From Candidatus Hadarchaeota archaeon (GTDB lineage: Archaea; Hadarchaeota; Hadarchaeia; Hadarchaeales; Hadarchaeaceae): a DNA stretch of 64,000 nucleotides. Location of the stretch: contig CAZETV010000002.1 of the NCBI GenBank assembly GCA_964514965.1, positions 37,547 through 101,546 of the forward strand, read 5' to 3'. This document shows positions 9,740-50,311 of the stretch, one piece after another (the stretch's first letter is position 1; every line of letters starts with the position of its first letter). The position numbers were made by a program, and so were the translations under genes. The notes beneath the pieces were generated by a model. It saw only the letters and a list, made by a program, of their open reading frames with translations. It was not told the DNA's origin and did no database searches.

Positions 9740-11380
9740 TTACTCCTCGCCCATCCCCATTTCTCCAGGAGAGGGCCCTCCCGGTGACGGCATCTCTTTC
9801 TTGGATGCAGATATCACATCGTCAATCCGGAGAATCATTATCGCAGCTTCACTTGCCGATTTTATCGCTTGGGTCTTTGTGCGTAGAGGTTCGATAACCC
9901 CCAGTTTCATCATATCCGTTACTTCACCTTTGTAGACTTCAATCCCGAAGGTTTTCCCCTTAGAGCCTTCATGCTTGGCGCGTAACTCCACAAGCATATC
10001 TATGCTATCCAGTCCTGCATTCTCTGCTAAGGTTCGTGGAATTGCTTCTACGGAACTTGCAAATCCATTGACAGCAAGTGCTTCGCGTCCACCAACAGTT
10101 TCCGCGTACTCTCTTAATCGCTTGGCTAATTCAATCTCGGGCGCTCCACCGCCAGTGACACTCTTGCCATCTTCGATTGCTGAAGCGACTACGCTGATTG
10201 CATCGTGTACAGCACGCTCAATCTCGTCGACTACGTGTTCGGTGCCACCGCGCACTAACAGACTTACAGCTTTCGGGTTCTTACAGCCCTCCACGAAGGT
10301 CATCTTGTCATCACCTATCTTCCGTTCCTCGATTAACCCAGCTTTGCCGAGGTCAGTGCTGGTTAGATCCTCGATGGTTGTGACGACTTTGCCTCCCGTG
10401 GCGCGGGCTAATTTCTCCATATCCGATTTTTTGGTCCGCCGGGTTGCGTAAATACCAACCTTCGAGAGGTAGTGCTGTGCAATGTCATCAATTCCTTTCT
10501 GGCATATAACGACGTTCGCGCCACTGGCAACGATTTGATCGACCATCTTTTTAAGCATGCTCTCTTCCTCATCCAAAAACGCGCGGAGCTGGTCAGGCCT
10601 ATTGACTCTGATTTCGGTATCGGTTTCGGTCTTTTTTACTTCAAGAGCACAGTCAAGCAAAGCGATATTGGCATTTTTCACCTGTTTTGGCATCCCCGGA
10701 TGGACGCGCTCCTTATCAAGAATAACCCCTTGGACAAGCTGAGAATCTTCAGTGCTCTCTCCGGGCTTCTTCTCAATACCGATGTAATCTATGTCAATTT
10801 TGTACCTTCCATCCGTTTTGTCCGCTATTTGCTTCACAGCGCTTACAGCGAGGCTGGCGAGTTTCTCTTTCGCGCTCTCCGCTTTCTTCCCGGTCATTGC
10901 GGTCATCGCCATCTGCTTGAGAAGCTCTTCCTTTTCAAAAGTCACCTCATCGGCGAGTTCATTCAATATCTCTTGGGATTTATCAGCGGCCATTCTATAT
11001 CCGGCGGCGATTACCGTTGGGTGGATGGCTTGGTCAAGCAAGCGCTCTGCTTCGCGCAAGAGTTCGCCAGCAATTATCACAGCGGTAGTTGTTCCATCCC
11101 CAACTTCATCGTCCTGCGTTTTCGCCACTTCGACTATCATTTTCGCTGCCGGATGTTCGACTTCCATCTCCTTAAGAATCGTAACACCGTCGTTTGTAAT
11201 AACAACATCACCTAAACTATCAACTAACATTTTATCCATTCCCCGTGGGCCAAGCGTCGTGCGGACCGCTTCAGTTATCACGCGAGCCGCCATAATGTTC
11301 ATGCGCTGGGCATCACGGCCAATCACCCTTCGTGCACCTTCAGGTAGCACGATGACAGGTTTACCTCCTAGTGTACTCAT
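9740..11380 (-). CDS. ths: thermosome subunit (group II chaperonin)
   Basis: 546 aa with [15 protein letters not shown], the ATP-binding motifs and a C-terminal GGM-like tail (GMGMGEE). Confidence 0.95.
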
Positions 11381-18574: not shown

Positions 18575-19474
18575 GTGTATGATCTAATTATCATCGGAGC
18601 AGGTCCCGCGGGCATAACCGCCAGTGTTTACGCGGCAAGAAAAAGAATGAATTTTTTGGTTATTACTCGTGACATTGGAGGGCAAGCAGCGTTAAGTTAC
18701 GATATAAAAAATTACGTCGGTTATCAGTTTATTACCGGGCCAGCTCTGGCGCAAAAATTTAGAGAACATCTGAAGCAATTCAATGTAGAAGCGAAAGAGG
18801 GAGAAAGTGTAACCTTAATAAATAAAGAAGGCGATATTGTAAAAGTGAAAACGGACAAAGGAGAATATACTGCGAAAACTGGGATTATATCTTCTGGAAG
18901 AGTTCCAAGAAAATTGGTCGTTGAAGGAGAAGAAGAATTTAAAAATAGGGGAGTTACATACTGTGCCACTTGTGACGGCCCTTTATTTGCAGATAAAGAG
19001 GTTGCGGTAATCGGAGGCGGAAATTCCGCTTTAGATGCGGTGCTTCAATTAATCAAAATCGCAAAAAAAATTTATCTTATTAACATCGGGGCAAAATTGC
19101 AGGCTGACCCGATAATGATTGAGAAGGCAAAAAATAGTGAAAAGGTGGCCATTTACAATAGCACGAAAGTGGAAAAGATTAACGGCGACACATTTGTTAA
19201 AGGAATCAAAATATCCAGAGAAGGAAAAGAAGAGAACTTAGCAGTGGAAGGAATATTTATCGAAATCGGCTCAACTCCTTCCTCTGATTTCATGAAGAAT
19301 ATAGAAAAAAATGAGATGGGGGAAATAGTAGTAAATTGTAAATGTGAAACCAGTATTCCTGGGATTTTTGCTGCCGGTGATGTGACGAATGTTTATGCCA
19401 AGCAGATAATAGTAGCATGTGGGGAAGGGGCTAAAGCTGCTCTGGCTAGTTTTGAATACATAAGTAAAAAATAA
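18575..19474 (+). CDS. thioredoxin-disulfide reductase-like FAD oxidoreductase
   Basis: DLIIIGAGPAGITASVYAAR FAD motif, CATCDG redox CxxC, a second GGGNSAL NAD(P) motif and a C-terminal GDV. Confidence 0.8.
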   Translation: MYDLIIIGAGPAGITASVYAARKRMNFLVITRDIGGQAALSYDIKNYVGYQFITGPALAQKFREHLKQFNVEAKEGESVTLINKEGDIVKVKTDKGEYTAKTGIISSGRVPRKLVVEGEEEFKNRGVTYCATCDGPLFADKEVAVIGGGNSALDAVLQLIKIAKKIYLINIGAKLQADPIMIEKAKNSEKVAIYNSTKVEKINGDTFVKGIKISREGKEENLAVEGIFIEIGSTPSSDFMKNIEKNEMGEIVVNCKCETSIPGIFAAGDVTNVYAKQIIVACGEGAKAALASFEYISKK

Positions 19475-26353: not shown

Positions 26354-26881
26354 TCAATGGAGCCCATATCCTCCGGTTATCGGGTCCTGAAAAATCGGCA
26401 AGTGAAGCGGATAAAAAGTGAAAATTACGAATAACACGGCTAAAAGAATTAAAGCGACCAGGAAAATTTTACCCCACGTTTTAGGAAATTTTTTTGAAAT
26501 CAACAACTTATAACTCACAAATTGGCCTATTACGACGGCGATGACGAAAGTAAGAATATCAATTGCAAACACACTTTCCCCGAGAATGGCCGTGTAAGAA
26601 TAGAAGAGAACTGCTATGATTGTCGGCATTAAATAGATGCCAACCCCTTTCGCAAATAAAAAGTTCTGATTTGCTTTCAAGGGTCTGTATTCTATAATGG
26701 CGAAAAACAATGCCGGCCAAAAAGCCAGTTTCAGATGCTCCCACACGCTTTCGTTTACAGACGAAAATATCCCGACAACTGCCTGATGGTCTGACAACTC
26801 GAAAGTGAAATGTAGCAAACTCCCTAAGATTATTATAAAAACTATTCCCGCCAACTCATAGACTAAAACAATCCTTTTCAT
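26354..26881 (-). CDS. membrane protein (5 TM), hypothetical
   Basis: Hydrophobic profile only. Confidence 0.4.
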   Translation of the reverse strand: MKRIVLVYELAGIVFIIILGSLLHFTFELSDHQAVVGIFSSVNESVWEHLKLAFWPALFFAIIEYRPLKANQNFLFAKGVGIYLMPTIIAVLFYSYTAILGESVFAIDILTFVIAVVIGQFVSYKLLISKKFPKTWGKIFLVALILLAVLFVIFTFYPLHLPIFQDPITGGYGLH

Positions 26882-32252: not shown

Positions 32253-33302
32253 ATGAAAAGATCATCAAAAAAAGGTCTTCCGCCAGGATCTCTCGTTCAT
32301 GTAGGGGAGAAAAAGGAAGAAAAAGTAAGAATTACAATCATCGACTATGACAAAGCGCAATTTCAAGAGAAGGAAGCAGAAACTGTCGAGGAATGTTTTC
32401 CCTTTAAAGATAAACCGACCGTGACATGGATAAACGTAGATGGCATTCATGAGCCGGAGATTGTGAAAAAGCTCGGTGATTGTTTTGGAATGCATCCTCT
32501 CGTGCTCGAAGACATCCTAAACACCGATCAACGTCCAAAAATGGAGGATTATGGTAACTACATTTACATCGTTTTGAAAATGCTTTATTACGATGAGAAA
32601 AGCAACGAGATGATTACAGAGCAGGTAAGTTTAGTTCTCGGTTCGAATTTTGTCATCTCTTTCCAAGAAAAAAGAGGGGATGTCTTTAACCCGATTAGAG
32701 AGCGAATCAAGAGCGATAAGGGCCGCGTAAGAAAAATGGGGGCCGATTACCTTGCTTATGCTTTGACGGATGCAATTGTTGATAACTATTTTACAATCTT
32801 GGAAAAAATTGGAGAAAAGGTAGAGTCCCTAGAAGAAGAGTTGGTGGCCAAACCAACACCAGAAATACTACAGGCAATCCACAATCTGAAAAGAGATCTG
32901 ATATTCTTACGAAAATCGGTCTGGCCTTTGAGGGAGGTGATTAGCGGCTTGGAAAGAGGAGAATCATCGCTGATTGATGCGTCCACCAAGCTCTACCTCA
33001 GGGATGTTTACGACCACACAATTCAGGTAATTGATACGGTGGAGACTTTGCGAGATATGGTTTCCGGGATGCTTGATATTTACCTCTCGAGCATCAGCAA
33101 TAAAATGAACGAAGTCATGAAAGTACTGACGATTATTGCCACGATATTTATTCCTTTGACTTTCATCGCGGGCATTTATGGAATGAATTTTGCCTTCATG
33201 CCGGAACTTGGGTTACCTTGGGCTTATCCTCTAATTTTGCTCGTGATGGTTGGTGTAGGTATATTAATGTTGATTTATTTTAGGAGAAAAAGGTGGATAT
33301 GA
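32253..33302 (+). CDS. corA: magnesium transporter CorA
   Basis: C-terminal two-TM region with the YGMNF (GMN) motif. Confidence 0.85.
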   Translation: MKRSSKKGLPPGSLVHVGEKKEEKVRITIIDYDKAQFQEKEAETVEECFPFKDKPTVTWINVDGIHEPEIVKKLGDCFGMHPLVLEDILNTDQRPKMEDYGNYIYIVLKMLYYDEKSNEMITEQVSLVLGSNFVISFQEKRGDVFNPIRERIKSDKGRVRKMGADYLAYALTDAIVDNYFTILEKIGEKVESLEEELVAKPTPEILQAIHNLKRDLIFLRKSVWPLREVISGLERGESSLIDASTKLYLRDVYDHTIQVIDTVETLRDMVSGMLDIYLSSISNKMNEVMKVLTIIATIFIPLTFIAGIYGMNFAFMPELGLPWAYPLILLVMVGVGILMLIYFRRKRWI

Positions 33303-34719: not shown

Positions 34720-36108
34720 TTGCCCGATTATAAAGAACCTCCGCGCAACGGCTTGACGGGAAAGATGGAGAAGAGACCGATACAGACAAATTTAGACGAT
34801 TTTTCTGAAGTTTATAAAGTTTATAAATTACTTTCACCGACTTCTCCCTCCCCTAAAATCGCATTTATTAATGATCGTAGAGAATGCAAAATGGGGGTGA
34901 CAGTGCAGCAGGGCATACTGTTAGTGCAACCAGAGTTCCCGATCGCTGGTAAGAGCAGGTGGCATAAATCTTTCCTGCCAATCGGGCTCCTAAAGCTCGC
35001 TTCATACTACCGGAAAAAAGGGCACAATGTGAAGTTGGTCTGTGGTAAAAAGAACCTAAAATTTCGACCTGATAAAGTCATGATAAGCTCGCTATTCACG
35101 TATTGGTCCAAATACGTCTGGGATTGCGTTAAACACTACAAACAGCTCTACCCAAATGCCAAGGTTGTGGTCGGTGGGATTTACGCCTCTCTAATGCCAG
35201 AACACTGCAAAAAGTCAGGGTGCGATGAAGTATTCGTTGGGGTGCACAAAAAAGCAGAGAAATGTGAACCTGCATACGATCTTCTTAAAAATAACTCTCA
35301 CCCCATAGACTATCAAATAATTCACACTTCTCGAGGCTGCGTCAGAAAGTGCAAGTTCTGTGGCGTATGGAAGATTGAGCCCGATTTTGAATACAAAAAA
35401 AGCATAAAAGATGAAATTCGAAGCAACCAACTGGTATTTTACGATAACAACCTTTTGGCAAACCCTTACATCGAGAACATTTTGGAGGAGATAGCACATA
35501 CCAAAGTTAACGGCAGGGTCGTGATCTGCGAGAGCCAATGTGGTTTCGATGGACGAATGCTAACCCCTAAGCTCGCAAGGCTAATCAAGGGGGCACATTT
35601 TCAATATCCCAAAATTGCGTGGGACGGGTCTTATTCAGAGCACAAAAACATCAAAAAACAGCTAGACATGCTTATAGATGCTGGCTATAGCCACAAAGAC
35701 GTTTTCGTGTTCATGATATACAACTGGGACCACGATTTCCGCGAGATGCAGAAAAAAAGATTGAAATGCTGGGGGTGGAAGGTGCAGATTTCTGATTGTC
35801 GATACAGACCATTGGAACAGACTTATGATAATTATGATCCGAGGAGAGTACAGACGAACGATGATTATTTTATACATCCAAAATGGACTGATTCTGAGGT
35901 TAAACAGTTTAGAAAAAACGTGCGTAGGCAAAATATTTGTGTTAGGCTGGGATTTTCATTTCATAGCAAAATCTTAGAGCAGAAAAAGCTCGGCAAAAAC
36001 ACGATAAAAAAATTACGAGACATGACACCAACTAAAGCTAAAAAAATGTTGCCAGATGTTTGGAACCCTGGTGAGATTACATTCCCTAAAATGGACTTAT
36101 GTACGTAG
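34720..36108 (+). CDS. B12-binding-domain radical SAM protein
   Basis: N-terminal Rossmann-like B12-binding region plus TSRGCVRKCKFCGV (Cx3Cx2C). AT-rich codon usage. The true start may be Met-58 (34891). Confidence 0.7.
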   Translation: MPDYKEPPRNGLTGKMEKRPIQTNLDDFSEVYKVYKLLSPTSPSPKIAFINDRRECKMGVTVQQGILLVQPEFPIAGKSRWHKSFLPIGLLKLASYYRKKGHNVKLVCGKKNLKFRPDKVMISSLFTYWSKYVWDCVKHYKQLYPNAKVVVGGIYASLMPEHCKKSGCDEVFVGVHKKAEKCEPAYDLLKNNSHPIDYQIIHTSRGCVRKCKFCGVWKIEPDFEYKKSIKDEIRSNQLVFYDNNLLANPYIENILEEIAHTKVNGRVVICESQCGFDGRMLTPKLARLIKGAHFQYPKIAWDGSYSEHKNIKKQLDMLIDAGYSHKDVFVFMIYNWDHDFREMQKKRLKCWGWKVQISDCRYRPLEQTYDNYDPRRVQTNDDYFIHPKWTDSEVKQFRKNVRRQNICVRLGFSFHSKILEQKKLGKNTIKKLRDMTPTKAKKMLPDVWNPGEITFPKMDLCT

Positions 36109-36109
36109 A

Positions 36110-36574
36110 TCATTTTTTCTTTACTTTCTTTGCTATCCCAATTAATTCCGTCTCTAATCTTTTACTAAAGCTACCTTTCCCACTAAAAACCTGATCTTTT
36201 AGAATTTTTATTCCGCCTGCAGCATATTCCTCGACTATTGAATACACTCTTTTTTTATCCAATAGCACTTCTAAATTACCTGCATCTTTTACAGCTACAG
36301 CGTTAATCAAAGCTTTTTCTGTATCGCTAAGGTATTCTGTCCTGATATATCCCGAGGGGTCCTTGTCTGTTATTTTGTGCTTTATTCCATTTTTGAATCC
36401 AACTACCATCGCTGCCAAAAATAAATGTTTTTTATTCTTGTTTCCAAATGGGCTATCTTTTTCTTCCAGCCTTGAAAAATGTTCTTTATCACTTTTTCTA
36501 ATGTAAATTATTGCTGGATCTTTACTTACCATATTTTCCCACCTGCGCTTTTGAGCCTGTTTTAAGTTCTTCAA
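36110..36574 (-). CDS. hypothetical protein, last gene of the candidate defence operon
   Basis: 154 aa, Lys-rich, no recognisable motif. Overlaps the upstream ATPase fragment by 53 nt. Confidence 0.35.
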   Translation of the reverse strand: MKNLKQAQKRRWENMVSKDPAIIYIRKSDKEHFSRLEEKDSPFGNKNKKHLFLAAMVVGFKNGIKHKITDKDPSGYIRTEYLSDTEKALINAVAVKDAGNLEVLLDKKRVYSIVEEYAAGGIKILKDQVFSGKGSFSKRLETELIGIAKKVKKK

Positions 36575-37121
36575 ATATTATTTTGTATTCTCCAATCAAA
36601 TTATCTGATAACTTTTTTCTGACGAATGGTGTATACTCGGTATCAGTCATTAACAGAATAACTTGCTTGTTTTTTAGATATTTGGGTAAATTTTTGCAAA
36701 TGTTTTCCCTTATTTCTCCAGAGATTCTACCCAGCGGGGTATCCATAACTATTGGGAAATCGAAACCAGAATATGCGCTCAAAGCATTTATGAATGATAA
36801 TGCCAACGCTTCCATTTCACCTCTGCTTAAGCTTCCTAATCCTTCGTGGTCTGATCTATGCGTGACGGAAATTTCATAATCATCGTTTATTTTTACATTT
36901 TTCCATTCATCTTTCTTCCAAATTAAATTGAAAAACGATTCTTTTGTGATTTGGTTAATTTTTTCTCTAGTGTCTTTCATAATGTTTTTTTTCACCTTAG
37001 TAGCCAATTCAACGGCTTCATCACAAAATGACACCACTTTGTTTAGCTCATCAAATTCTTTAGATCTTTCTAGTTCTTTATCCCGTTCTCTTCTGTAGGT
37101 CTCGAACTGACTTTCGGCCAT
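36522..37121 (-). CDS. DndD/SMC-like ABC ATPase, C-terminal half (signature + Walker B)
   Basis: LSRGEMEALALSF signature, FPIVMDTPLGRIS Walker B / D-loop as in DndD-type ATPases, and QVILLMTDTEY. Confidence 0.55.
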   Translation of the reverse strand: MAESQFETYRRERDKELERSKEFDELNKVVSFCDEAVELATKVKKNIMKDTREKINQITKESFFNLIWKKDEWKNVKINDDYEISVTHRSDHEGLGSLSRGEMEALALSFINALSAYSGFDFPIVMDTPLGRISGEIRENICKNLPKYLKNKQVILLMTDTEYTPFVRKKLSDNLIGEYKIIFEELKTGSKAQVGKYGK

Positions 37122-37156
37122 TTTAACTCGTGCCTCACGTTCACCGATATCTTCAC

Positions 37157-38482
37157 TTAATTTCGTGATTTCTGTATCAAGGTTTCCGTATCGTTTCTCC
37201 AGTATTTTAAATTTTTCTTCAATTTTTGAATCGACTTGTTCTTTAATTTTTTGCTTTTATTTTCATAGCCAGTTTCTAGTTTTTTGATTTCTCTTTCAAG
37301 TTTGATCATGCTTGTGTCAAAATTTTTAAGGTTATCGATGGATCGGGCTAAATCGGTTTTTAATTTAATCAAATCCGAACTAATGGCGGATATATCGCTT
37401 ATTTTTTTAAGAAGACTCTCAACTTTTTTTCTACAACTGATATTCTTTTTAGTTATGTCCGTCCCACAGATACAATTACCATCTTTAAGTAATTTTTCTA
37501 AATATTTTGGGTCTATATTTGGCGGTACATTTTCTTGGTCTTGTTCTCGAGTAATCTCTTTAATTGTGGATTCTATAGCAGGATAAGTTAGTAAATGCAG
37601 GGAAGAATCTACAAGAAAATCCGTCAATTCATCTCTCTTATCTTTTATTGTTTTTTCAAGATCTTTCAAATCACGTTCAAGTTCTTCCCTGGTTTCCTGT
37701 AAGTTCCTTATATTTGGCATTGACTTTAATTCTTCGGCTATTTCGTTTTTATCCTTAACTTTCCCATCTTTTATTTTACGGAATTTTTCCAAGTCGGCTT
37801 TATAGTTGTTTAAGGATTTCTCCCAAGTATCAATTTTCTCTTGAGCATCTGCAAGAGCGGGAGTTAACTTTTTTGATTTTCTTACAAATTCGTTTTGTAT
37901 TGCTCCCAAGTGCGATATCGCTTTTTCCAACACTTCCAATTGAGAAAGTTTAAAAATCTCCTTTTTTATCTCCTCACCAGATTTTTCTCTAAAATAACTT
38001 TCTAGCTTTTCACCATCAAAAAGAAAATAGTCTACAATACTCCCTGGTATCAACTGATTAGCAACATAAGTCGGATCAGAAACAAATTTCATGTCGTCTC
38101 CGATTTCTCGTAAAAGTTCAAATTTTTGTTTGTTGGGAATTTCTTTTACTTCGCCATTTTCTTCACAATATTTTGTGCTTCTCACAAAAATCGCTTTATT
38201 TCCTTCATTGTCTGTCATTACAATTTCCACTTTTACTTCACATGCTGATGGACTCTCCTTTAAAGAAATAGTATTGACCGTGGGCAAAGCTAAACTTTTT
38301 TTATTTAGGTGTAACTCCCTGCCATATAAGCACCAAGTAATAGCGTTCATTATGTTTGTTTTCCCTGCCCCGTTTCTACCTTCTAAGACGACTATGTTTT
38401 TTTTGCCGAATGGTGCAGGGAACTCTATTATTTCATTTGCATATTGCCTATAATTAATTAATTTAATTTTTTTAATTAACAT
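37157..38482 (-). CDS. DndD/SMC-like ABC ATPase, N-terminal half (Walker A + coiled coil)
   Basis: IKKIKLINYRQY...VLEGRNGAGKTNIMNAITWCLYG, then a long Lys/Glu-rich coiled coil. It is separated from the C-terminal half by 35 nt and a frame change. Confidence 0.6.
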   Translation of the reverse strand: MLIKKIKLINYRQYANEIIEFPAPFGKKNIVVLEGRNGAGKTNIMNAITWCLYGRELHLNKKSLALPTVNTISLKESPSACEVKVEIVMTDNEGNKAIFVRSTKYCEENGEVKEIPNKQKFELLREIGDDMKFVSDPTYVANQLIPGSIVDYFLFDGEKLESYFREKSGEEIKKEIFKLSQLEVLEKAISHLGAIQNEFVRKSKKLTPALADAQEKIDTWEKSLNNYKADLEKFRKIKDGKVKDKNEIAEELKSMPNIRNLQETREELERDLKDLEKTIKDKRDELTDFLVDSSLHLLTYPAIESTIKEITREQDQENVPPNIDPKYLEKLLKDGNCICGTDITKKNISCRKKVESLLKKISDISAISSDLIKLKTDLARSIDNLKNFDTSMIKLEREIKKLETGYENKSKKLKNKSIQKLKKNLKYWRNDTETLIQKSRN

Positions 38483-38485
38483 GAA

Positions 38486-38656
38486 TTATTTCACCGCCTT
38501 TTTTACAAGATTTTCGTACGTTTCACTATACCACCAACGATCTTCCTCGGAGTGGTCTGTTTCTAACATCAATATTTCTTTCAGAAATTTTTTGGTTTTT
38601 TCACTATAATTGCTTTTTTCAATTTCTTTGATGATTCTTTCGTTTAATATAGCCAT
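38486..38656 (-). CDS. small ORF (56 aa) between helicase and ATPase genes
   Basis: MAILNERIIKEIEKSNYSEKTKKFLKEILMLETDHSEEDRWWYSETYENLVKKAVK. Its stop abuts the ATPase ATG. Not in the ORF track (<60 aa). Confidence 0.3.
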   Translation of the reverse strand: MAILNERIIKEIEKSNYSEKTKKFLKEILMLETDHSEEDRWWYSETYENLVKKAVK

Positions 38657-38664
38657 GTGAACCA

Positions 38665-40761
38665 CTATAGGTTAAATTCTTTCCTTATTTTTTTAACTTT
38701 TTCAAGACACTTCGGGGTGTTGTTAGCATCATATGCGAACTCTTCGTATCTCTTTAGCTCTTTTATCAGTATCTTCCTTTCCAATTCAAAAAAATCTGGT
38801 TCGAAAGAACGTTGCGAAGAGGGCAAAACAATAATGTCGTAGAGTGTGGCCTTGTCCTTTCCCGGAAAACGTCTTAAAAGCCTCCCTCTTCTTTGAATGA
38901 ATTCTCTGGGATTACCCGAGCTCGAGAGCAATATGCCTGTTCTGGCGGGTGGAACATCCACTCCTTCGTCTAAACATTTCATTGCAACTAAAATCTGATA
39001 ATCGCCATCGGCAAATTTTCGGAGCAAAATTTCTCGTTGGGCAACGTTTTCGACCGCTGTAAACTTGTGTTGTAAAATATCTCTGTCGTTTAAAATTCTT
39101 TGAACTCTCTTTATCTGTTTTGGCGAACAATAAACAAAGCAATGTCTGGCACCGCCACCGATCTTGTCTAATATTTTTTCAAAAACAACGTATTTGTTTT
39201 GAGCGTTTTTTACGGTCTCTTGACGTTTTATACATAACAAATTAAAAAGTTCCTTTCTCTCCTGGTTAGACTTGCATGCGTAATATTGTCGAGCAATTTT
39301 CTTAGTTTCAGATTGATAGAGGTAAAACTCTTCGTCAGTCATCTCGACGAAATAGGGTTCATATTCGTATGGTGTGAGATAAGTTTCTCCGGTTTTTGGA
39401 TTTACAGTTGTGATGGCATCTTTTATAGAGAAAACTGATACTATATCTCCGAAATACTCAAAAAGTTTTTTGCTTCCAGGTTCATCAAAATATCTTTTAG
39501 GTGTTGCACTTAACCCCAACCTGAATTCATATCGGTCTAACAAACCTTTTTGTCTCTCTGGTGCCCCGAGGGTATGAACTTCGTCGCCAATTAAAAATAC
39601 TTTTGCGCTAGTTTCATTTATTATTTCAGTAAAATCATTACTAGAAATGGTATTTGGGGTAGTTAAAATTATTATTTTTTCACTAATGTCATTTTCTATG
39701 TCCCGCAAGTAGTCAACCAGTTTATTTTTCCAACCTGGATTGCTACTATCAGCGATTACGATAAGCCAATGAATGTCAAATTTTATTATTTCATTTTCCC
39801 ATTGTTTCAGCAAATGTTTGGTGGGTGAAGTAATGACAATGACAAGCTTTTTTTCTGATTCAGACATTTTCTTCAAACATCCCAACGCAGCAAACGTTTT
39901 CCCAGAACCTGTAGCCATTTCAAAAATCCCTTTCTTACCGTTTTCTAACCAATTAGCGATAGCACTCTCTTGATGAGTCCATAACTTGATTGCTTTTTTT
40001 CTTATCCATTCTTTCTTTATCAACCATTTGTCCAGATTCAAAACTTCAACATTGTCTGGAGCTATTTTAATAAGCTTTTCTTTTACGCCGGTGGGGACAT
40101 CGATAACTTTTGTTCTTCTTGCCTGTCCATTCCAGAATTTTTCAAATTTTTTGATATCTGTATCAAGATATTCTTTTTCAGTTTCTTTCCAACTACAAAA
40201 TACTTTAAACTCTTCTATATGCCTCGTCCATCCATAAGCGCTTTCGTTATCAGAACCGCTAAACGATATTCGGTTCCCTTCTACATCTTCTAATATACCG
40301 ACCTTCTGATGAAACAATCCTTCTTTTTCGATAGATTCTTCATCAAGAGGTAGCCCGTCCTCATCATAAACGATTGCTATTTTAATTTCTAGTTTCTTTT
40401 TGGCAATCATCCACCCCAGTGCGCACACATGGTCTTCCACGAATTTATCTTCTAAATTTTCCAATTCTTCAAGCATCATTTTTTCTATCACTTTCTCAGG
40501 AGTTTCATGAGCTTCTCTAATAACTTCAACATCGGATTTTCGTAGTTTGGCGCTTGTAACTAAATACATGAATCCACCATTGGAAATCAATTTAGAAATT
40601 CCTCTCGCGGCAACAGCAAGAGCGCTTGAAGAGAAAAATCCAGCTAACCTTTTATAAGTTACTGATTGGGATAATGCAAGTATGTAAAAGTCATTTAGAA
40701 TATCGTCAATGTCGGAGTCGTAAGCTTTTTTTAGCTTTATACCCTTCAAGGTCATGTTCAC
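38665..40761 (-). CDS. PLD-family (HKD-like) nuclease domain fused to SF2 ResIII/DEAH-type helicase
   Basis: N-terminus has FHQKVGILED...SFSGSDNES (HxK...GSxN). Then ATGSGKTFAA (motif I), LIGDEVH (motif II) and QRRGRLLRR (motif VI). GGAGG SD lies 8 nt upstream of the ATG. Confidence 0.7.
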   Translation of the reverse strand: MNMTLKGIKLKKAYDSDIDDILNDFYILALSQSVTYKRLAGFFSSSALAVAARGISKLISNGGFMYLVTSAKLRKSDVEVIREAHETPEKVIEKMMLEELENLEDKFVEDHVCALGWMIAKKKLEIKIAIVYDEDGLPLDEESIEKEGLFHQKVGILEDVEGNRISFSGSDNESAYGWTRHIEEFKVFCSWKETEKEYLDTDIKKFEKFWNGQARRTKVIDVPTGVKEKLIKIAPDNVEVLNLDKWLIKKEWIRKKAIKLWTHQESAIANWLENGKKGIFEMATGSGKTFAALGCLKKMSESEKKLVIVITSPTKHLLKQWENEIIKFDIHWLIVIADSSNPGWKNKLVDYLRDIENDISEKIIILTTPNTISSNDFTEIINETSAKVFLIGDEVHTLGAPERQKGLLDRYEFRLGLSATPKRYFDEPGSKKLFEYFGDIVSVFSIKDAITTVNPKTGETYLTPYEYEPYFVEMTDEEFYLYQSETKKIARQYYACKSNQERKELFNLLCIKRQETVKNAQNKYVVFEKILDKIGGGARHCFVYCSPKQIKRVQRILNDRDILQHKFTAVENVAQREILLRKFADGDYQILVAMKCLDEGVDVPPARTGILLSSSGNPREFIQRRGRLLRRFPGKDKATLYDIIVLPSSQRSFEPDFFELERKILIKELKRYEEFAYDANNTPKCLEKVKKIRKEFNL

Positions 40762-44430: not shown

Positions 44431-44510
44431 AAACTGCTCCGAACTTGAACTCCCACAGGCTACTGCTCCAATTTAAATGATATCCCCACCACTTTGTAAC
44501 GGGAAATCTC

Positions 44511-45152
44511 ATGCACGAAAACATCAGGCTCGGAGTGACCCGCCTCCAATCGGCTCTCGACTGCCCCCTCTGCTTCTGGCTCTCTCGGCGTATTGGCTCG
44601 CCTCCCTCCATCTTCGCCGGCATCCCCGCCCAGATTGACTCCGTGATCAAAAATTACATGAAGCAATTCATCGGGAACTCGGATTTGCCTGAGTGGTTCC
44701 CCGTGCGCGGCACCTTCATGGACGCCAGCCAGACCCTGAGAGCAACCGACCCGACCACCTGCATCACCGTGGTGGGAAAGCTCGATGCTTTGGTGAAGAC
44801 GGCAGACGAAGAATATCACATCATCGACTACAAAACTGGCAGGCCCCCCAAGGAGGTTCCAAATTACTACCAAATGCAGCTCGACGGCTACGCCTACCTC
44901 CTCGAGCAAAACGATTTCCGGCCCGTGGTGGGCGGCACGTTGCTTTACTTCACGCCCGAGCATGGGGACCTCTCGGAGGGGCGCTTCCCGTTCAAAATCA
45001 CCGCTGTGCGGGCCGAGGTTGACCCGGGCCGCATCCCGCCCGTTCTCGCGCTGGCCAGGGAAATCCTCGACTTGCAGACCCCGCCGCCCAGAAGCGAGGA
45101 CTGCGAGATGTGCATGTGGCGGGAGCAGGTCGAGCACACTCTATCAGAATGA
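44511..45152 (+). CDS. Cas4-like PD-(D/E)xK nuclease with 4-Cys cluster (stand-alone)
   Basis: N-terminal CPLCFW, core HIIDYKTG (D-x-K-T) and C-terminal DCEMCMW are the DUF83/Cas4 hallmarks. Confidence 0.55.
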   Translation: MHENIRLGVTRLQSALDCPLCFWLSRRIGSPPSIFAGIPAQIDSVIKNYMKQFIGNSDLPEWFPVRGTFMDASQTLRATDPTTCITVVGKLDALVKTADEEYHIIDYKTGRPPKEVPNYYQMQLDGYAYLLEQNDFRPVVGGTLLYFTPEHGDLSEGRFPFKITAVRAEVDPGRIPPVLALAREILDLQTPPPRSEDCEMCMWREQVEHTLSE

Positions 45153-45205
45153 GAACACCCGAACGATTTTTGACTTCTCACGAGATTTTGTTGGCCAAAG
45201 ACAGC

Positions 45206-46060
45206 CTAGAAAGGTGCGAATACGCCCATAAACACGAACCACGCCAAAATTGTTTTTGCGGCTAAACTGAGAATAACGTAAAATCGTTCGCCATAGAGGT
45301 AATCTCTCCAACGTCCGACACCTTTGTACTGTAAGACCATGTTGATCGCGAAGATATTGAACAGAATGAAATAGATGAAAGGGATGAAGTATACGAATGT
45401 TGGAATTTCTCCTCCCACAGAGTTAACAGCAGCAACGAAATAGGCGAAAATCACGACCCATGGAACCCAACCTGAAATCGTCCCCAAGATAAATGGCGAC
45501 CAATTAGTCTTTTTTGTTTTCTGATTGAGAATTTCCATCAAATACCCGAACATTATCATCATCGCGTTTAAGACGAAAATCATGATCAACGACCAAAAAT
45601 CCCAGACACCCACCAACAGTGCAATCAGTAATATCATTATTGAGCTTGAGAAGGCGTACTCGTACCAGCGGTAAGGATTCATCCCTTTTTTCAAATTTTC
45701 ATTGTAACGGTTATTTACCAGATACGAAATCGAAAAGTGCGCTATGGCAGAAATTAGGAGGAAGGAAGCGAGAATCGCCCCCAAATATTCGAAAGTAAAC
45801 AAAATTTGAGGATTCGGTACCACCTCGAATAGGATTGGTTCCGTAGTAATTATTTTTATATCAAGATAGAACGTGTATACATTTCTCGAAAACGTCAGAA
45901 GAAGACCCAACAGCAACATTGCTATCCCCTGAACTAAATGCAAAGAACCTGCGATGGTGTTGAAGCGTTTCAGATAGGTAAAAGTTATAGGTGAGCTGGC
46001 GATTATTTTCTGCCTTTCTTTATAATCCATTGGTGCCCCCATAGTACTAAATATGTCCAA
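45206..46060 (-). CDS. heliorhodopsin (7-TM retinal protein)
   Basis: Seven TM helices with FNTIAGSLHLVQ, NPYRWYEYAFSSSIMILLIA, NAMMIMFGYLME, GWVPWVVIF and QYKGVGRWRDYLYGERFYVILSLAAKTILAW. The Schiff-base Lys sits in the last helix, matching the heliorhodopsin family pattern. Confidence 0.7.
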   Translation of the reverse strand: MDIFSTMGAPMDYKERQKIIASSPITFTYLKRFNTIAGSLHLVQGIAMLLLGLLLTFSRNVYTFYLDIKIITTEPILFEVVPNPQILFTFEYLGAILASFLLISAIAHFSISYLVNNRYNENLKKGMNPYRWYEYAFSSSIMILLIALLVGVWDFWSLIMIFVLNAMMIMFGYLMEILNQKTKKTNWSPFILGTISGWVPWVVIFAYFVAAVNSVGGEIPTFVYFIPFIYFILFNIFAINMVLQYKGVGRWRDYLYGERFYVILSLAAKTILAWFVFMGVFAPF

Positions 46061-46225
46061 AATACTAAATAAATCTTCTTATTTAGAACCAAATAATTTA
46101 AATTGGTGCAAAATACTGCAAAATTATCGCGATAAGTGCCCGATTTAGAGTGATAATTGATTTGATTCTAAACCTAGTGCAAAAACTAGCCATTTACATT
46201 GACCCGCTGTTGAAAAATTAAATAA

Positions 46226-46930
46226 TTACGAAATCAGCGGAATTATCTCGTTTGTCACGTAATCCAGAAATTCATTCAGCTCAGCCCGGCTGAACATCGT
46301 CACCACGCAATCCCGGGTGATACCCACGACCAAGCCACGCTTTTGCAGTTCAAGAACCGTGTACCAAATCTTTCCGTGTTCAAGATAATCGCGGTAGAGC
46401 TTGGTGTCCGCGAGCGCTGATCCTGCGAGCGCTAGTTTCCCTACACTTGGGATATCAACTTCGTCGAACCAGATGAGCTTCGTGGCGCGGGGGTTTGATT
46501 CGTGAAGCTCCTTTAAAGTTTCATGGGTAATCTTTGTCTCAACTATCCCCCCCGTCTTGATGAAAAGAATCTCGCTGAGTTTGTTCGCCACGTAGTTCGT
46601 CAGCAGCTTCTTCACCCCCCTAGCTTTTGAAGGCGCGAGCACGACAAGGAAAGTCCGATCTTTAAATCGCTTGATCCAGAAGGGGGTTTCTTCCGTGACC
46701 GGAGTTTCAACCAGTCCGCGCTTGTAATAACGGCTGAGCACGAAGTCCTTGCTAAAAATTCCCGCCAGCAAGTCGGCCTCTATCTTCAAATCCAAAATTT
46801 CCATCGCCAGTTTGAGCTGCTGCCCCTTTTGCTCGTACGGTACTTCTTCCCGGAAGTCCTTGAGCTTCTGGGCTATCAGCGCCAGCTCGATTGGCTCCTT
46901 GAGCTCGAATATCTTTGCGGCGAGGACCAT
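46226..46930 (-). CDS. hypothetical protein divergent from SMC-like operon
   Basis: 234 aa, no motif recognised. Confidence 0.35.
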   Translation of the reverse strand: MVLAAKIFELKEPIELALIAQKLKDFREEVPYEQKGQQLKLAMEILDLKIEADLLAGIFSKDFVLSRYYKRGLVETPVTEETPFWIKRFKDRTFLVVLAPSKARGVKKLLTNYVANKLSEILFIKTGGIVETKITHETLKELHESNPRATKLIWFDEVDIPSVGKLALAGSALADTKLYRDYLEHGKIWYTVLELQKRGLVVGITRDCVVTMFSRAELNEFLDYVTNEIIPLIS

Positions 46931-47000
46931 ATGTCACCCTAAAGACTTAAACACTGTGAGGGTTTAAAATTGAGGACGTATAAAATTTAAACTGGTACTT

Positions 47001-48914
47001 ATGTCTGCAAGCGCCATAATCCAAGAGATAATTCTAGAAAATTTCATGAGTTACGAATATTCTAGAATCCCATTCAATCCGGGGCTCAACCTAGTTTGCG
47101 GTCCAAACGGCGCTGGAAAGTCATCAATTCTGCTCGCTCTAGCTGTGGCCCTTGGGCAGACCTACACCGAGCGCTCCCGTAAGCTCAGCGACCTCATCCG
47201 CCGGGGTAAGAATCTGGGACGAGTGAGCGTGGTGTTCGACAATTCCCCCCACAATGGAAGGAGGCCCATCCCGAGCGTGAACTCTGATAGTCTAGTCCTT
47301 TCGCGCTATCTGAACCGCGACGGAACCTACTGGCATGAGGCCAATAACCGCACGATAACGAAGGGCGAGGTGCTGCGGCTGCTCGGGCGGCTCTCGATAA
47401 ACCCCGACAACATGCTCATCATCATGCACCAGAACATGATTGATGTGCTCGGGGCGATAGATGCACACGAGCGGCTAAAAATCATCGAGGAAGCGGTCGG
47501 GCTGCGCGAGTACCGGGAGCATATCCTCGAGGCGCGTGAGAAGCTTTCGCACACCTTGAGCGAGGAGGAGTCGATTCGCAGCCTGCTCGAGAAAGCTCAA
47601 GAAACGTTGCGCTACTGGGAGGGCGAGTACGGGAGATTTCAGCGGAAGCAAGAGCTCGGAGAGCGGAAGCAGGAGCTAGAGCTGGAATACGCTTGGGCGA
47701 AATGTATCCGGCAGGAAGAGGCGGTCGGCAACCTTCAATCTAAACTCGACGGGCTAAAGTCAGAGCTGAGTGAGATCGAGGGCGAGCTGGAGCAAAACTC
47801 GAAACGTGGCGGGGAGCTTGAAAAAAAGTTGGGGGAACTTGGGTTTGAACTCGATGCTGCCTATCAAAAGCTCATCACCCAAGAACGGGCACAAGCCGAA
47901 GCGGGGGCACGCGCCAAGCTCATTGAGAGTTTCAACACATCCATACGCTCGGTGGCCGAAGTTGGCTTGAGTGAATTGCTCGCACACCTCGAGGTCGAAC
48001 TGGGGCGGGCGAAAGAAACCCTTAAAGAAGCCGGCGAGCGGGCGAATGAGGTGAAATCTGAACTCGTCAGGGGCAAGGGCGAACTCGAGAAAACCCAAGA
48101 AACTTACGTTAACTCCCGTATCCACACCGCCGTGCTGGGGTTCCGCCGCGAACTCCTAGAACGTGACATCTCAAGCGCTCAGTCCGAACTCAGGCGAGCA
48201 CGCCGCGAGCTGGAACAACTGGAGAATGATGCCCAGCAATTGGGGACGCGGGTCGAGACCGAAAGAAAGCCCCAGGAAGTGCTCGATGAACTCAAACTCA
48301 CCAACATCCAACTAGCCAGCTTAGCTGATGTCTCACCCGATGTCGAGAGGATGTATCTAAACTACAAGGGTACACTCAAGGAACTCGAGGCAAAGGCCGA
48401 GGTAGCTGCAGCCAACCGTAAGCGGGCGCTCGATGAGCTGGAACTCAGAAAGCAGCGCTGGACCGATGAAACAAACAACCTTATACGTCAAGTTAAGGTG
48501 AACTACATCGAAATCCTGAAGCGAGTTAACGCGAGCGGTGATGTGATTCTGACGAACGCTCAAGATATCGACGAAGCAGGGATAGAGCTGTTCGTTGGTT
48601 TCAGGGGGTCCGAACCTCAGGTGCTGAACGCCTACACACAGAGCGGAGGGGAACGAACGACTTCCCTAATGTGTTTTCTGCTGGCGCTGCAGCAACAAAT
48701 TCAATCCCCCATCCGTGCAATCGACGAGTTTGAAGCCCATCTGGACCCACACAATCGGGAGGCAATCCTGCAGGGGATTATAGAGTTCATGAAGGGCGGG
48801 GAGACGCAGTACATCGTGATCACCCCCGGACAGCTTTTCAACGTGAAAGGGATACCAAACGTGATCACCGTTCAAAACATCGCGGGCTCATCTCAGGTGA
48901 AGGTGGCTGCTTGA
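47001..48914 (+). CDS. short SMC-like ATPase (about 640 aa)
   Basis: N-terminal FMSYEYSRIPF..LNLVCGPNGAGKSSILLALAVALG, a long coiled coil, a C-terminal QSGGERTTSLMCFLLALQ signature and IRAIDEFEAHLD Walker B. Confidence 0.7.
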   Translation: MSASAIIQEIILENFMSYEYSRIPFNPGLNLVCGPNGAGKSSILLALAVALGQTYTERSRKLSDLIRRGKNLGRVSVVFDNSPHNGRRPIPSVNSDSLVLSRYLNRDGTYWHEANNRTITKGEVLRLLGRLSINPDNMLIIMHQNMIDVLGAIDAHERLKIIEEAVGLREYREHILEAREKLSHTLSEEESIRSLLEKAQETLRYWEGEYGRFQRKQELGERKQELELEYAWAKCIRQEEAVGNLQSKLDGLKSELSEIEGELEQNSKRGGELEKKLGELGFELDAAYQKLITQERAQAEAGARAKLIESFNTSIRSVAEVGLSELLAHLEVELGRAKETLKEAGERANEVKSELVRGKGELEKTQETYVNSRIHTAVLGFRRELLERDISSAQSELRRARRELEQLENDAQQLGTRVETERKPQEVLDELKLTNIQLASLADVSPDVERMYLNYKGTLKELEAKAEVAAANRKRALDELELRKQRWTDETNNLIRQVKVNYIEILKRVNASGDVILTNAQDIDEAGIELFVGFRGSEPQVLNAYTQSGGERTTSLMCFLLALQQQIQSPIRAIDEFEAHLDPHNREAILQGIIEFMKGGETQYIVITPGQLFNVKGIPNVITVQNIAGSSQVKVAA

Positions 48915-48915
48915 A

Positions 48916-49707
48916 ATGCCGGGCGAACGCAAAGAACTGATGTTACGGATAATCGACCTCTGCGACACTGTGCGAAAGCGAGGAGTCGACCCCTTCGACG
49001 TTGAGGTTCGAGAGTTTTTTGACCGACTGCGGGAACTCCTCCCAAATCTGAAAAAGAATGAGGACCTTTATCTTGACATCCAAGCGGTGCTCGGGCTTGC
49101 CGATGTGGTGTTCCAGCAGGGCGAGTGGATCAAGCACAAGTCGTCGATGCTCTACCTCGATCCCCTGCTGATTATGCTCAAGCTTCATGCCCTCCCGGCG
49201 CGAGAGCTTGCCGATGTCTTCGCGCGTTCATGGCACCCCATTGTGCAGATGGAGACACTCTCGCCCCACGGCATTTCCGAGGCCAAGCAGTACTGGACTA
49301 ATCTACCGAGCCTTGAAGAACGCTGGCGTGGGCTCGACACGACTGAGGTGTTTACTGGGGAGATAGCCCGCCGAGAGCTCGTTCGCATGGGCATCCTTTC
49401 AGAGGAAGACTTCGCGGCGGTGCTTGATCAGACTTGGCGCGAGCTCAAGGAAGCGGTGGGGGAGCGGGGCGAAATCTCTTACTGGGATTTCATCCACAAC
49501 CAGAGCTTCGAGGAAACCGTCAGGCGGGCATGGCTCGTGAGCTTCTTGGTGAGCTATGGCTACGCCACTCTCGAACTCAAGCCCCTTGAGGAGGAAATTT
49601 TGCTGAGACCGTTGCCCAAACCGCGAGAACTCGAACGTGTCACAACCTTCTCTGTCCCTATCGCTATTTCCCGTGACGAGTGGCTCAGGAGGCTAAAGGG
49701 TGGCTGA
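48916..49707 (+). CDS. ScpA/kleisin-like protein
   Basis: Its TGA overlaps the SMC-like stop. The N-terminal helical region (LRIIDLCDTVRKRGVDPFDVEV..FFDRL) resembles ScpA. Confidence 0.45.
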   Translation: MPGERKELMLRIIDLCDTVRKRGVDPFDVEVREFFDRLRELLPNLKKNEDLYLDIQAVLGLADVVFQQGEWIKHKSSMLYLDPLLIMLKLHALPARELADVFARSWHPIVQMETLSPHGISEAKQYWTNLPSLEERWRGLDTTEVFTGEIARRELVRMGILSEEDFAAVLDQTWRELKEAVGERGEISYWDFIHNQSFEETVRRAWLVSFLVSYGYATLELKPLEEEILLRPLPKPRELERVTTFSVPIAISRDEWLRRLKGG

Positions 49708-50311
49708 GGAACCAGATGTCGCCGAGCTACGGGAAAAGCTGGCGCGGGCTGCACAGCTCCTGCTCTACAAGCACCACATGCAACCGGGAGCCAAGGAATG
49801 GGAGCTCAGGCGCACTCTGGGCAGGGACTACGAGCAGATTCTGAAGCTTCTCGACGCCGAATTCGATAAACTGGGGCTAAAAGTAAAGCGAGTGAGCGAG
49901 GGCGAGACCAGCTCGGAATCGGACAGATATTATGTCACGCTCCGAGGGCATCCGAGAGTGACCGAGACCCGAACCTTCGGGTGGCGGATTGATGACATGG
50001 CAATGCTCACCGTCGCGCTCGCCCACATCCTATCAAAACAGGGAAAAGCCCCCCTCAAAGAGGTCGAGCGAATGTTGGAGGAAAAATTCCCGCGCTGGCG
50101 CATCGAGTCGACTTTAGACCGGTTCATCCGGCGGGGCTACCTGTCGGAGGATGATGAAGGGTTGCTCTACGTGGGGTGGCGCGCTCGGGCGGAAATCGAC
50201 CAGCGAACTCTGCTCGGGTTGTTGTTGGGGAAAGAAGAGAAGCCTAACGAAGCTGAGGCCGAGCCGAAAGTCGAAACCAAGAAAGTAGAAGAAACTAAAG
50301 GAGATAGCTAA
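49700..50311 (+). CDS. ScpB/kite-like winged-helix protein
   Basis: Two predicted wH repeats and an acidic C-terminus. Overlaps the ScpA-like stop. Confidence 0.4.
   Translation: MAEEPDVAELREKLARAAQLLLYKHHMQPGAKEWELRRTLGRDYEQILKLLDAEFDKLGLKVKRVSEGETSSESDRYYVTLRGHPRVTETRTFGWRIDDMAMLTVALAHILSKQGKAPLKEVERMLEEKFPRWRIESTLDRFIRRGYLSEDDEGLLYVGWRARAEIDQRTLLGLLLGKEEKPNEAEAEPKVETKKVEETKGDS

Follow-up and report, generated by a model that had tools for sequence, protein, structure and literature searches.

We analysed a heliorhodopsin (HeR) gene and its surroundings in a window of 64,000 nucleotides (nt), i.e., positions 37,547 to 101,546 of contig CAZETV010000002.1 (assembly GCA_964514965.1, Candidatus Hadarchaeota archaeon). 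The gene lies on the minus strand in an AT-rich patch, between a gene for a PD-(D/E)XK (Cas4-like) nuclease and a gene for a 234-amino-acid (aa) protein, p234, and appears to have been acquired horizontally as a small cassette. The features of the locus, in window coordinates, are as follows.

44511 to 45152, plus strand: gene for the PD-(D/E)XK nuclease, GC 0.60, left flank, convergent with the HeR gene (PDDEXK_1, E 1.5e-14)
45178 to 45186: left 9-bp direct repeat, TCACGAGAT, a relic copy of the p234 3' end
45187 to 46225: cassette interior, 1,039 bp, i.e., 19 bp plus the coding sequence plus 195 bp of upstream region, delimited by junction alignment against empty sites
45187 to 45205, minus strand: 3' tail of the cassette, 19 bp from the HeR stop codon to the left repeat, from the same alignment
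45206 to 46030, minus strand: HeR coding sequence, 274 aa plus a TAG stop
46031 to 46060, minus strand: over-extension of the mechanically called reading frame (TTG at 46060), from homologue lengths and sequence
46031 to 46225, minus strand: AT-rich non-coding upstream region, 195 bp, part of the cassette by nucleotide alignment of six bearing loci
46092 to 46104: TATA-like box TTTAAATTATT (sense orientation), about 62-75 nt before the HeR ATG, conserved in the alignment
46226 to 46234: right 9-bp direct repeat, TTACGAAAT in the window and TCACGAGAT in loci L009 and L088, the working p234 end
46226 to 46930, minus strand: gene for p234, right flank, no Pfam or NCBIfam match, adjoining an SMC-like gene in most of 80 loci

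The initial annotation had called the gene as a 284-aa open reading frame (ORF) at 45206-46060. This frame is present on the minus strand, with a TTG start, but the start of the protein is almost certainly the ATG at 46030, which yields 274 aa with the N-terminus MDYKERQK. Among the 120 best homologues (96% query coverage), lengths are mostly 274-276 aa and alignments begin at residue 11 of the 284-aa ORF, and the HeR gene is therefore taken as 45206-46030. The 30 nt beyond it are probably 5' untranslated region and not coding, and a GGGGG run 7 nt 5' of the ATG may act as a ribosome-binding site.

The identification of the protein as a heliorhodopsin was borne out by Pfam, NCBIfam, alignments to PDB entries, the predicted fold and the active-site residues alike. 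PF18761 was matched at 306 bits over profile positions 1-241 of 242 (curated cut-off 26.7), and the HeR equivalog NF038020 of NCBIfam at 334 bits (cut-off 100). The three diagnostic segments that the initial annotation had named occur verbatim in the protein (RWYEYAFSSSIMILLIA, GWVPWVVIFAY and QYKGVGRWRDYLYGERFYVILSLAAKTILAW). By phmmer against the PDB, the full length aligned with TaHeR (6is6, E 7e-58) and with HeR 48C12 (E 1e-44), and in these alignments both the Lys of transmembrane helix 7 (TM7; 48C12 K241, here K259) and the counter-ion Glu (48C12 E107, here E124) are present. The codons of the active-site residues, all seven of which are invariant among 26 homologues, are the following.

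45938 to 45940, minus strand: H31 (48C12 H23)
45749 to 45751, minus strand: S94 (48C12 S76)
45737 to 45739, minus strand: H98 (48C12 H80)
45659 to 45661, minus strand: E124, the counter-ion, within RWYEY (48C12 E107, TaHeR E108)
45287 to 45289, minus strand: E248 (48C12 E230)
45266 to 45268, minus strand: S255 (48C12 S237)
45254 to 45256, minus strand: K259, the retinal Schiff-base Lys (48C12 K241, TaHeR K238)

An AlphaFold2 model, built from a shallow alignment and with a predicted local distance difference test (pLDDT) score of 71 and a predicted template-modelling (pTM) score of 0.60, has a rhodopsin-like fold of seven long TM helices with a TM1-TM2 beta-hairpin (strands 48-63 and 66-81). 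The ten best Foldseek matches in the PDB were all HeRs (E 4e-15 to 4e-11), with template-modelling scores of 0.67-0.74 by query length and 0.71-0.81 by target length (TaHeR 0.74/0.81, 48C12 0.71/0.75), while type-1 rhodopsins trailed at E >= 7e-3. The predicted loops carry ten Lys and Arg residues in the N-terminus and the TM2-3, TM4-5 and TM6-7 loops versus two on the opposite side, a distribution that predicts the inverted HeR topology with a cytoplasmic N-terminus.

TaHeR (Thermoplasmatales archaeon SG8-52-1; PDB 6is6, 7clj, 7u55) shares 42-43% identity with the window protein over the full length, as well as the seven-helix fold with TM1-TM2 hairpin, the Glu counter-ion, the Schiff-base Lys, the His pair and an Asn at the position of 48C12 Q213. 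The window protein differs in being about 13 residues longer in the TM1-TM2 hairpin and about 5 in the TM5-TM6 loop, and in having a host from a different phylum. With 48C12, the founding actinobacterial HeR (PDB 6su3, 6uh3), identity is 37-39% and H23, S76, H80, E107, E230, S237 and K241 are all kept; 48C12 belongs, however, to the other major HeR subgroup, and its Q213 is Asn in the window protein.

The gene had further been described as compositionally distinct from its GC-rich neighbours, and it is, by more than the composition of the protein explains. Its guanine-plus-cytosine (GC) content is 0.401 (GC1 0.38, GC2 0.32 and GC3 0.50 at the three codon positions), compared with 0.53 over the ±5 kb on either side and 0.55-0.60 for the genes next to it; genes at 41-54 kb have GC 0.51-0.60 and GC3 0.58-0.79. 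At 79 other archaeal loci (GC3 0.28-0.89), the GC of the HeR gene tracks that of the ±5 kb flanks (difference -0.009 ± 0.033, r = 0.88). Against these 79 loci, the difference of -0.129 in the window corresponds to z = -3.7, and those of -0.154 to -0.179 in five syntenic relatives to z = -4.4 to -5.2, so that the window and these relatives are extreme outliers. Amino-acid composition as the sole cause of the AT-rich patch was ruled out by this control, and the patch is therefore a real anomaly, specific to the Hadarchaeota HeR lineage.

The host is a Hadarchaeote. The named relatives of its thermosome (9740-11380) are exclusively Hadesarchaea, Hadarchaeaceae and Hadarchaeum, at 74-92% identity, and a 100% match to the thermosome lies on a 245-kb NCBI contig that also carries the window HeR and a DUF6512 protein described below. 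Among the best 80 of 308 HeR matches in GTDB species representatives, the two highest (96% and 89%) are metagenome-assembled genomes (MAGs) labelled 'Candidatus Hadarchaeota archaeon' (L008 and L009), whose contigs are collinear with window positions 44.5-55 kb at 86-89% nt identity; the next are Bathyarchaeota at <=76%. A Bathyarchaeote host, suggested by the top named HeR matches, was ruled out by the thermosome and by these Hadarchaeota-labelled syntenic MAGs.

The AT-rich patch noted in the initial annotation is thus real, and alignment to related loci went further, delimiting it as a discrete, apparently horizontally acquired cassette with an identifiable empty site. Besides the window, the cassette is carried by L002, L008, L009, L088 and L097. 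The last two came from a scan of metagenomes with the SMC-like protein encoded beside p234, which returned 80 loci at 40-92% identity onto which the genes of the window neighbourhood were mapped; their gene order is that of the window (PDDEXK, HeR, p234, SMC), and no other locus among the 80 has a HeR within 10 kb. Across the six bearers, the cassette is 88-90% identical over its full length, coding and non-coding alike; beyond them only the coding sequence finds matches. The GC of the cassette is 0.40 compared with 0.53-0.56 in the flanks of the cassette-bearing loci.

The insertion falls precisely on the p234 stop codon. Read as its reverse complement, the 9-bp repeat is ATC TCG TGA, i.e., Ile-Ser-stop, the last two codons and the stop of p234; the repeat is perfect in L009 and L088, and L097 and the window show 1-2 mismatches. 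The p234 gene ends in the right copy, and the left copy is a relic, as expected from a target-duplicating insertion. In empty sites the repeat is single-copy: L089 (TCACTAGAT), a 251-kb contig (JABUBO010000002.1) whose flank proteins are 91% identical to those of the window, has a PDDEXK-p234 gap of 37 bp and no HeR, and L091 (TCACGAAAT; 83%) likewise lacks a HeR at this site. The nuclease gene, whose NCBIfam match to Cas4 is weak, adjoins the site in L002, L008, L009, L088, L089, L091 and L097. A transposon or miniature inverted-repeat transposable element was considered; the 9-bp target duplication is present, but with no inverted repeats and no recombinase gene the cassette was not filed as a transposable element.

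The junctions also bear on whether a bathyarchaeal fragment was fused to Hadarchaeota DNA by assembly or binning. In favour of this are the origin of the sequences in metagenome assemblies, the presence of Bathyarchaeia together with Hadarchaeota in sediments, and the abrupt steps in GC. The same two junctions are found, however, in seven independent assemblies (window/L001, L002, L008, L009, L088 and L097) at 8-14% nt divergence, the cassette is just 1 kb within a 245-kb contig, and its synonymous divergence (dS) equals that of the flanks. Since mutually diverged assemblies share the junctions, a chimera is in effect excluded, and we consider its probability negligible.

The upstream region is 80-89% nt identical across the six cassette-bearing loci and lacks similarity to any bathyarchaeal HeR upstream region with which it was compared. 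A T-rich tract lies in it immediately past the p234 stop codon. The conserved upstream blocks were read from four alignment rows, those of L088 and L097 being left out, and from these the TATA-like box is a putative promoter and the T-rich tract a putative terminator.

We next consider the origin of the HeR. Identity is 89-96% within its own lineage, then 77-84% to proteins from unbinned contigs and 72-76% to Bathyarchaeota-named proteins. The closest HeRs beyond the lineage lie on unbinned contigs in unrelated gene contexts, at GC 0.39-0.45, 79-83% aa identity and <=80% nt identity, and the GC of the cassette (0.40) agrees with that of these low-GC contigs but differs from that of the host flanks. 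Neighbour joining of 88 HeRs (48C12 as root, 100 bootstraps) recovered the HeRs of the window, L002, L008 and L009 as monophyletic in 100/100 bootstraps, and in 74/100 this clade stood behind at least three (median four) successive sister groups composed solely of sequences that were labelled Bathyarchaeia or Thermoproteota or had no label. A viral vector was looked for and rejected, as IMG/VR held no HeR of this clade and only 27-36% relatives of the DUF6512 protein, on two viral contigs.

Loci L168, L169, L171 and L176 belong to one metagenome, Joint Genome Institute (JGI) sample 3300009034 (Ga0115863), which yielded both the HeRs closest outside Hadarchaeota (82-83% aa identity) and one of the closest non-Hadarchaeota DUF6512 proteins (71%); these contigs have 39-41% GC where measured. 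The donor lineage may have been sampled there.

Bathyarchaeal HeRs (Pan et al. 2020, PMC7110647) resemble the window protein in identity (72-84%), equal length and membership of the same clade, and the ecological puzzle is the same, in that these archaea of sediments have a light sensor but no clear source of retinal. In Bathyarchaeia, the HeR gene has a host-like GC, often occurs in several copies per genome and lies among light- and oxidative-stress genes, whereas in the Hadarchaeote it stands alone as a single-gene insert of foreign composition. Several single bathyarchaeal genomes have two or three different HeRs from this clade on separate contigs (L018/L023/L038; L011/L019; L029/L042; L043/L045; L022/L083), among them the single-cell genome SAG AM-311-L02 with three copies.

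A tree of concatenated p234, SMC-like, kleisin-like and p203 proteins (see below for the latter two) placed the window, L008, L009, L088 and L089 in one clade with 100% bootstrap support, with L090, L091 and L092 as outgroups. Between bearers, the dS of HeR is 0.31-0.46, similar to 0.40-0.49 in the flanking genes, and its ratio of non-synonymous to synonymous divergence (dN/dS) is 0.07-0.13. These values indicate a single insertion before the bearer genomes diverged, followed by purifying selection. On this sequence evidence, a Bathyarchaeia-like donor would have passed the gene to the lineage before the sampled Hadarchaeota relatives split, by an insertion resembling a staggered-cut, target-duplicating event that left no transposase or inverted repeats behind.

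An alternative in which this Hadarchaeota lineage inherited HeR from its ancestors and L089 and L091 lost it, with the low GC of the gene reflecting hydrophobic composition or selection, was weighed against the same data. GC1 and GC2 are low, as expected for a protein rich in Phe, Ile, Leu, Tyr and Asn, while GC3 equals the window average; L089 is not resolved as an outgroup of the HeR-bearing genomes; and a deletion between the direct repeats would likewise leave one copy. Composition cannot, however, yield differences of -0.13 to -0.18 when the 79 control loci track their hosts so closely, and the left repeat, as a relic of the p234 stop region, is a signature of insertion. Moreover, the more distant L091 also lacks HeR, no 64-84% relative has one within 10 kb, and the thermosome is of Hadarchaeota type, but the HeR clade branches from among the HeRs of Bathyarchaeia. 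We therefore regard ancestry with loss as very unlikely.

The preferred reading is that the locus holds a functional HeR in a 1,039-bp single-gene cassette that came from a Bathyarchaeia-like donor into a Hadarchaeote host and has been maintained by selection; we put its probability at roughly 80%. Several points weigh against it. L089, which lacks HeR, has no resolved place inside the 100% clade, and a gain after its split or a gain followed by precise loss both fit. The trees are neighbour-joining and not maximum-likelihood, and the GTDB comparison, given its scope, allows for other HeR types elsewhere in Hadarchaeota. No inverted repeat links one end of the cassette to the other, and no transposase or recombinase gene was found, HeR being the only family-matched ORF in the cassette. 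Finally, the comparisons turned up nothing closer to a donor than sequences at 80% nt (83% aa) identity, and an attempt to identify the donor through the non-coding cassette sequence gave no match beyond the lineage, at any bathyarchaeal locus included; the donor is therefore assigned to a group only.

The protein itself is an ordinary heliorhodopsin, and the literature already describes HeRs from sediment archaea: their occurrence and transcription in Bathyarchaeota and the puzzle of their retinal source were reported in 2020 (PMC7110647), and proteins named 'heliorhodopsin HeR [Candidatus Bathyarchaeota archaeon]' are already present at NCBI. The new elements are the host phylum, Hadarchaeota, a transfer event resolved in unusual detail and the association with DUF6512, and in the literature searched we found no report joining Hadarchaeota and heliorhodopsin in this sense. 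The HeR family is thereby extended to Hadarchaeota, and the question becomes sharper of why a light sensor stays under selection in archaea known from dark or dim sediments.

Rhodopsins are known to pass laterally between Bacteria and Archaea, as with proteorhodopsin in marine Euryarchaeota, usually with blh/crt genes or into retinal-making hosts. The Hadarchaeote case resembles these classical transfers in that a small, self-contained photoreceptor gene crossed deep taxonomic boundaries, and differs in that the rhodopsin moved alone and that the exact site, the target duplication and the empty site are all visible. With the donor group and the constraint after transfer visible as well, the transfer of a rhodopsin can be followed at this locus with unusual clarity, as in a natural experiment. 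A bare HeR gene and its promoter region would suffice as the unit of transfer, and the partner is therefore either generic or separately supplied.

No retinal-synthesis gene lies in the window, as the initial annotation had stated. Pfam scans of HeR and 50 other substantial ORFs recovered the trp operon, thermosome, PGK/GAPDH, NucS, CorA, Lhr helicase and others, but no SQS_PSY, phytoene desaturase, lycopene cyclase, BCD/Blh or RPE65, and the precomputed Pfam annotation of the identical contig stretch (35.2-56.0 kb, genes of a low-GC island included) likewise held no retinal or carotenoid gene. In a tblastn search of the window with a bathyarchaeal crt cluster, which alone covered ORFs <150 aa, DUF6512 was the sole match.

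A rival explanation is that the HeR is a non-functional passenger, a relic in an organism without light or retinal. In line with this, the window lacks a retinal pathway, one bathyarchaeal HeR copy (L173) is truncated to 144 aa, and Hadarchaeota are described from subsurface and hydrothermally heated settings (PMC10811742). Opposed to it are the dN/dS values accumulated over the dS given above, a constraint like that of neighbouring host genes, together with a reading frame intact in all six relatives, invariant catalytic residues throughout and a conserved promoter-like upstream region, and we judge the passenger explanation to be highly improbable.

By analogy with the biochemistry of the family, the functional HeR that we favour would sit in the membrane with its N-terminus inside and bind all-trans-retinal through a protonated Schiff base at K259, E124 serving as counter-ion. 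Light would drive a slow photocycle in which the proton moves to the H31/H98 cluster, and the HeR would modulate a partner protein by direct contact, with no ion pumping. Given that the gene arrived alone, the partner would be a conserved host protein or the separately acquired DUF6512 protein; a conserved operon partner was rejected, as neighbours vary beyond the close lineage and p234 is part of the SMC-like module. With no visible retinal pathway, the probable source of the chromophore is scavenging or an enzyme that has escaped recognition.

Neither 48C12 nor TaHeR reportedly transports ions. Proton transport has been reported for the viral HeR V2HeR3, as cited in PMC11109279 and PMC12873467, and arrival without a partner gene would suit such a self-sufficient function. 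The window HeR is, however, closest to TaHeR and prokaryotic HeRs, and its E124/H31/H98 arrangement is that of non-transporting HeRs, so that there is only a very slim chance of a proton transporter here in place of a regulatory sensor. The roles published for HeRs of prokaryotes are regulatory, by binding to glutamine synthetase (PMC9529153) and to photolyase and ABC transporters (PMC11109279). De novo synthesis of retinal is absent from most genomes that have HeR as their only rhodopsin (10.1101/2021.02.01.429150, 10.1101/2021.02.16.431466), and a 2025 preprint proposes that HeRs also recruit exogenous carotenoids (10.1101/2025.11.27.691015).

A second gene of possible relevance lies elsewhere in the window.

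26354 to 26881, minus strand: gene for a DUF6512 five-helix membrane protein (PF20122, E 2.5e-31)

It too lies in an AT-rich patch (GC 0.39 versus 0.50 in the flanks), and its phyletic pattern mirrors that of HeR: relatives at 85-91% are followed by a gap to <=72%, a Bathyarchaeota-named protein included, and NCBI names in the >=90% cluster are Hadesarchaea and Hadarchaeaceae. Its dN/dS is 0.16, and its syntenic position, between deoxyhypusine synthase and a transglutaminase-like gene, is the same in L172; this locus and the HeR-bearing L088 are both part of assembly GCA_012975005.1. DUF6512 is thus probably a second gene acquired from Bathyarchaeia, and possibly linked functionally to HeR.

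A survey of HeR neighbours at about 75 other, mostly bathyarchaeal loci (150 ORFs) recovered the published associations (SOUL, PNP-oxidase-like proteins, tRNA methyltransferases, MFS/ABC) and also flagged DUF6512. Homologues of DUF6512 lie <=10 kb from HeR in 11/85 HeR-centred loci versus 0/80 controls (Fisher p = 7e-4), L011, L018, L021, L027, L036 and L042 among them; in six of the 11 they are adjacent or within about 0.8 kb. When a named bathyarchaeal DUF6512 was looked up regardless of HeR, it was found directly upstream of the truncated HeR gene (L173), at a locus with CrtI-like, lycopene cyclase, CrtZ-like, UbiA, UvdE and Pyridox_ox_2 genes. In a second look-up (L176), the divergent arrangement of UvdE-Pyridox_ox_2 and DUF6512 was as in L173 with no HeR or crt genes, which speaks against a tight link, and with HeR adjacent in 1/2 unbiased look-ups DUF6512 was rejected as an obligate HeR neighbour.

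At L173 (10646-11077; complete Bathyarchaeota chromosome CP070649.1), HeR matches extend over the first 144 residues only, at 75% identity, and about 950 bp without a called gene follow the truncated or disrupted HeR. This locus also contains a Staygreen (PF12638) gene, and Staygreen homologues lie close to HeR in six further loci. In L003-L087, homologues of Pyridox_ox_2 (PNP-oxidase-like) were counted up to 10 kb from HeR in 22 loci, DUF523-DUF1722 in 8, UvdE in 3 and CrtI with lycopene cyclase in 3. The neighbourhood in L003 includes photolyase, a Y-family polymerase, AhpC and MsrA/B, and that in L168 AhpC and a pyrimidine-dimer glycosylase, gene content that agrees with the published light/oxidative-stress theme.

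Members of the DUF6512 family have five TM helices (model pLDDT 86) and seven invariant residues, H24, E28, E44, E48, H49, E64 and D108. Only two of these are His, whereas four are conserved in Blh (the beta-carotene 15,15'-dioxygenase Blh/Brp). Homology to Blh at the sequence level was rejected for the family, none of 38 members matching PF15461 (BCD) even at E <= 10; the model found no fold match in the PDB, the protein had no NCBIfam match, and the literature searched contained no publication on DUF6512. On a conservative reading, the family is part of a recurrent light/UV-stress gene neighbourhood in Bathyarchaeia. A bolder proposal, which we hold to be unlikely, is that it is a membrane enzyme forming retinal or a retinal analogue from carotenoids, or a HeR signalling partner, co-acquired with HeR at a separate site as a complete light-sensing unit. 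Linkage above background, the carotenoid cluster of L173, the shared phyletic gap and low GC, and purifying selection are the points in its favour. The field explicitly lacks a retinal source for HeR-only organisms, and DUF6512 surfaces as a previously unremarked HeR-associated family with a bearing on it.

Turning to other features of the window, p234 (divergent), a 637-aa SMC-like ATPase, a 263-aa protein with a weak Nse4_C (kleisin) match and the 203-aa p203 form a module at 46226-50311, the order of which is kept in most of the 80 archaeal metagenome loci (L088-L167; 40-92% identity). It may be an archaeal SMC-kleisin system, unrelated to HeR. On the other side of the cassette, a 225-aa ORF (44460-45137, minus strand) runs antisense to the PDDEXK gene and is the call made by the public annotation (L001 10894-11571, no Pfam match); it is probably a gene-calling error in GC-rich DNA, because Pfam and the conserved annotation of L002 favour the plus-strand nuclease. 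In L091 (8890-9230), the PDDEXK/p234 junction has a duplication of about 270 bp of the PDDEXK 3' end around an AT-rich insert, with repeated GTGC(C/T)AA-like motifs, and the intergenic site seems to be a recurrent insertion target.

The window as a whole is patchy in composition (per-gene GC 0.32 to 0.60), and the genome is a mosaic in this respect. At 41-54 kb, GC is unusually high (0.55-0.60) relative to the window mean of 0.48, while a thioredoxin-reductase-like gene (18575-19474; GC 0.39, GC3 0.33), CorA (32253-33302; 0.41) and a B12-binding radical-SAM gene (34720-36108; 0.42) all have a much lower GC than the DNA around them. A 4.7-kb island of very low GC (36110-40761, minus strand; GC 0.32-0.36, GC3 about 0.30) encodes a DEAD/SNF2-type helicase (698 aa), an SMC_N/AAA_23 ATPase (441 aa), a 199-aa protein and a protein with a Dnd-associated domain (PF27807), and looks like a horizontally acquired defence island. 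In L089, the radical-SAM gene flanking the island position has different upstream content.

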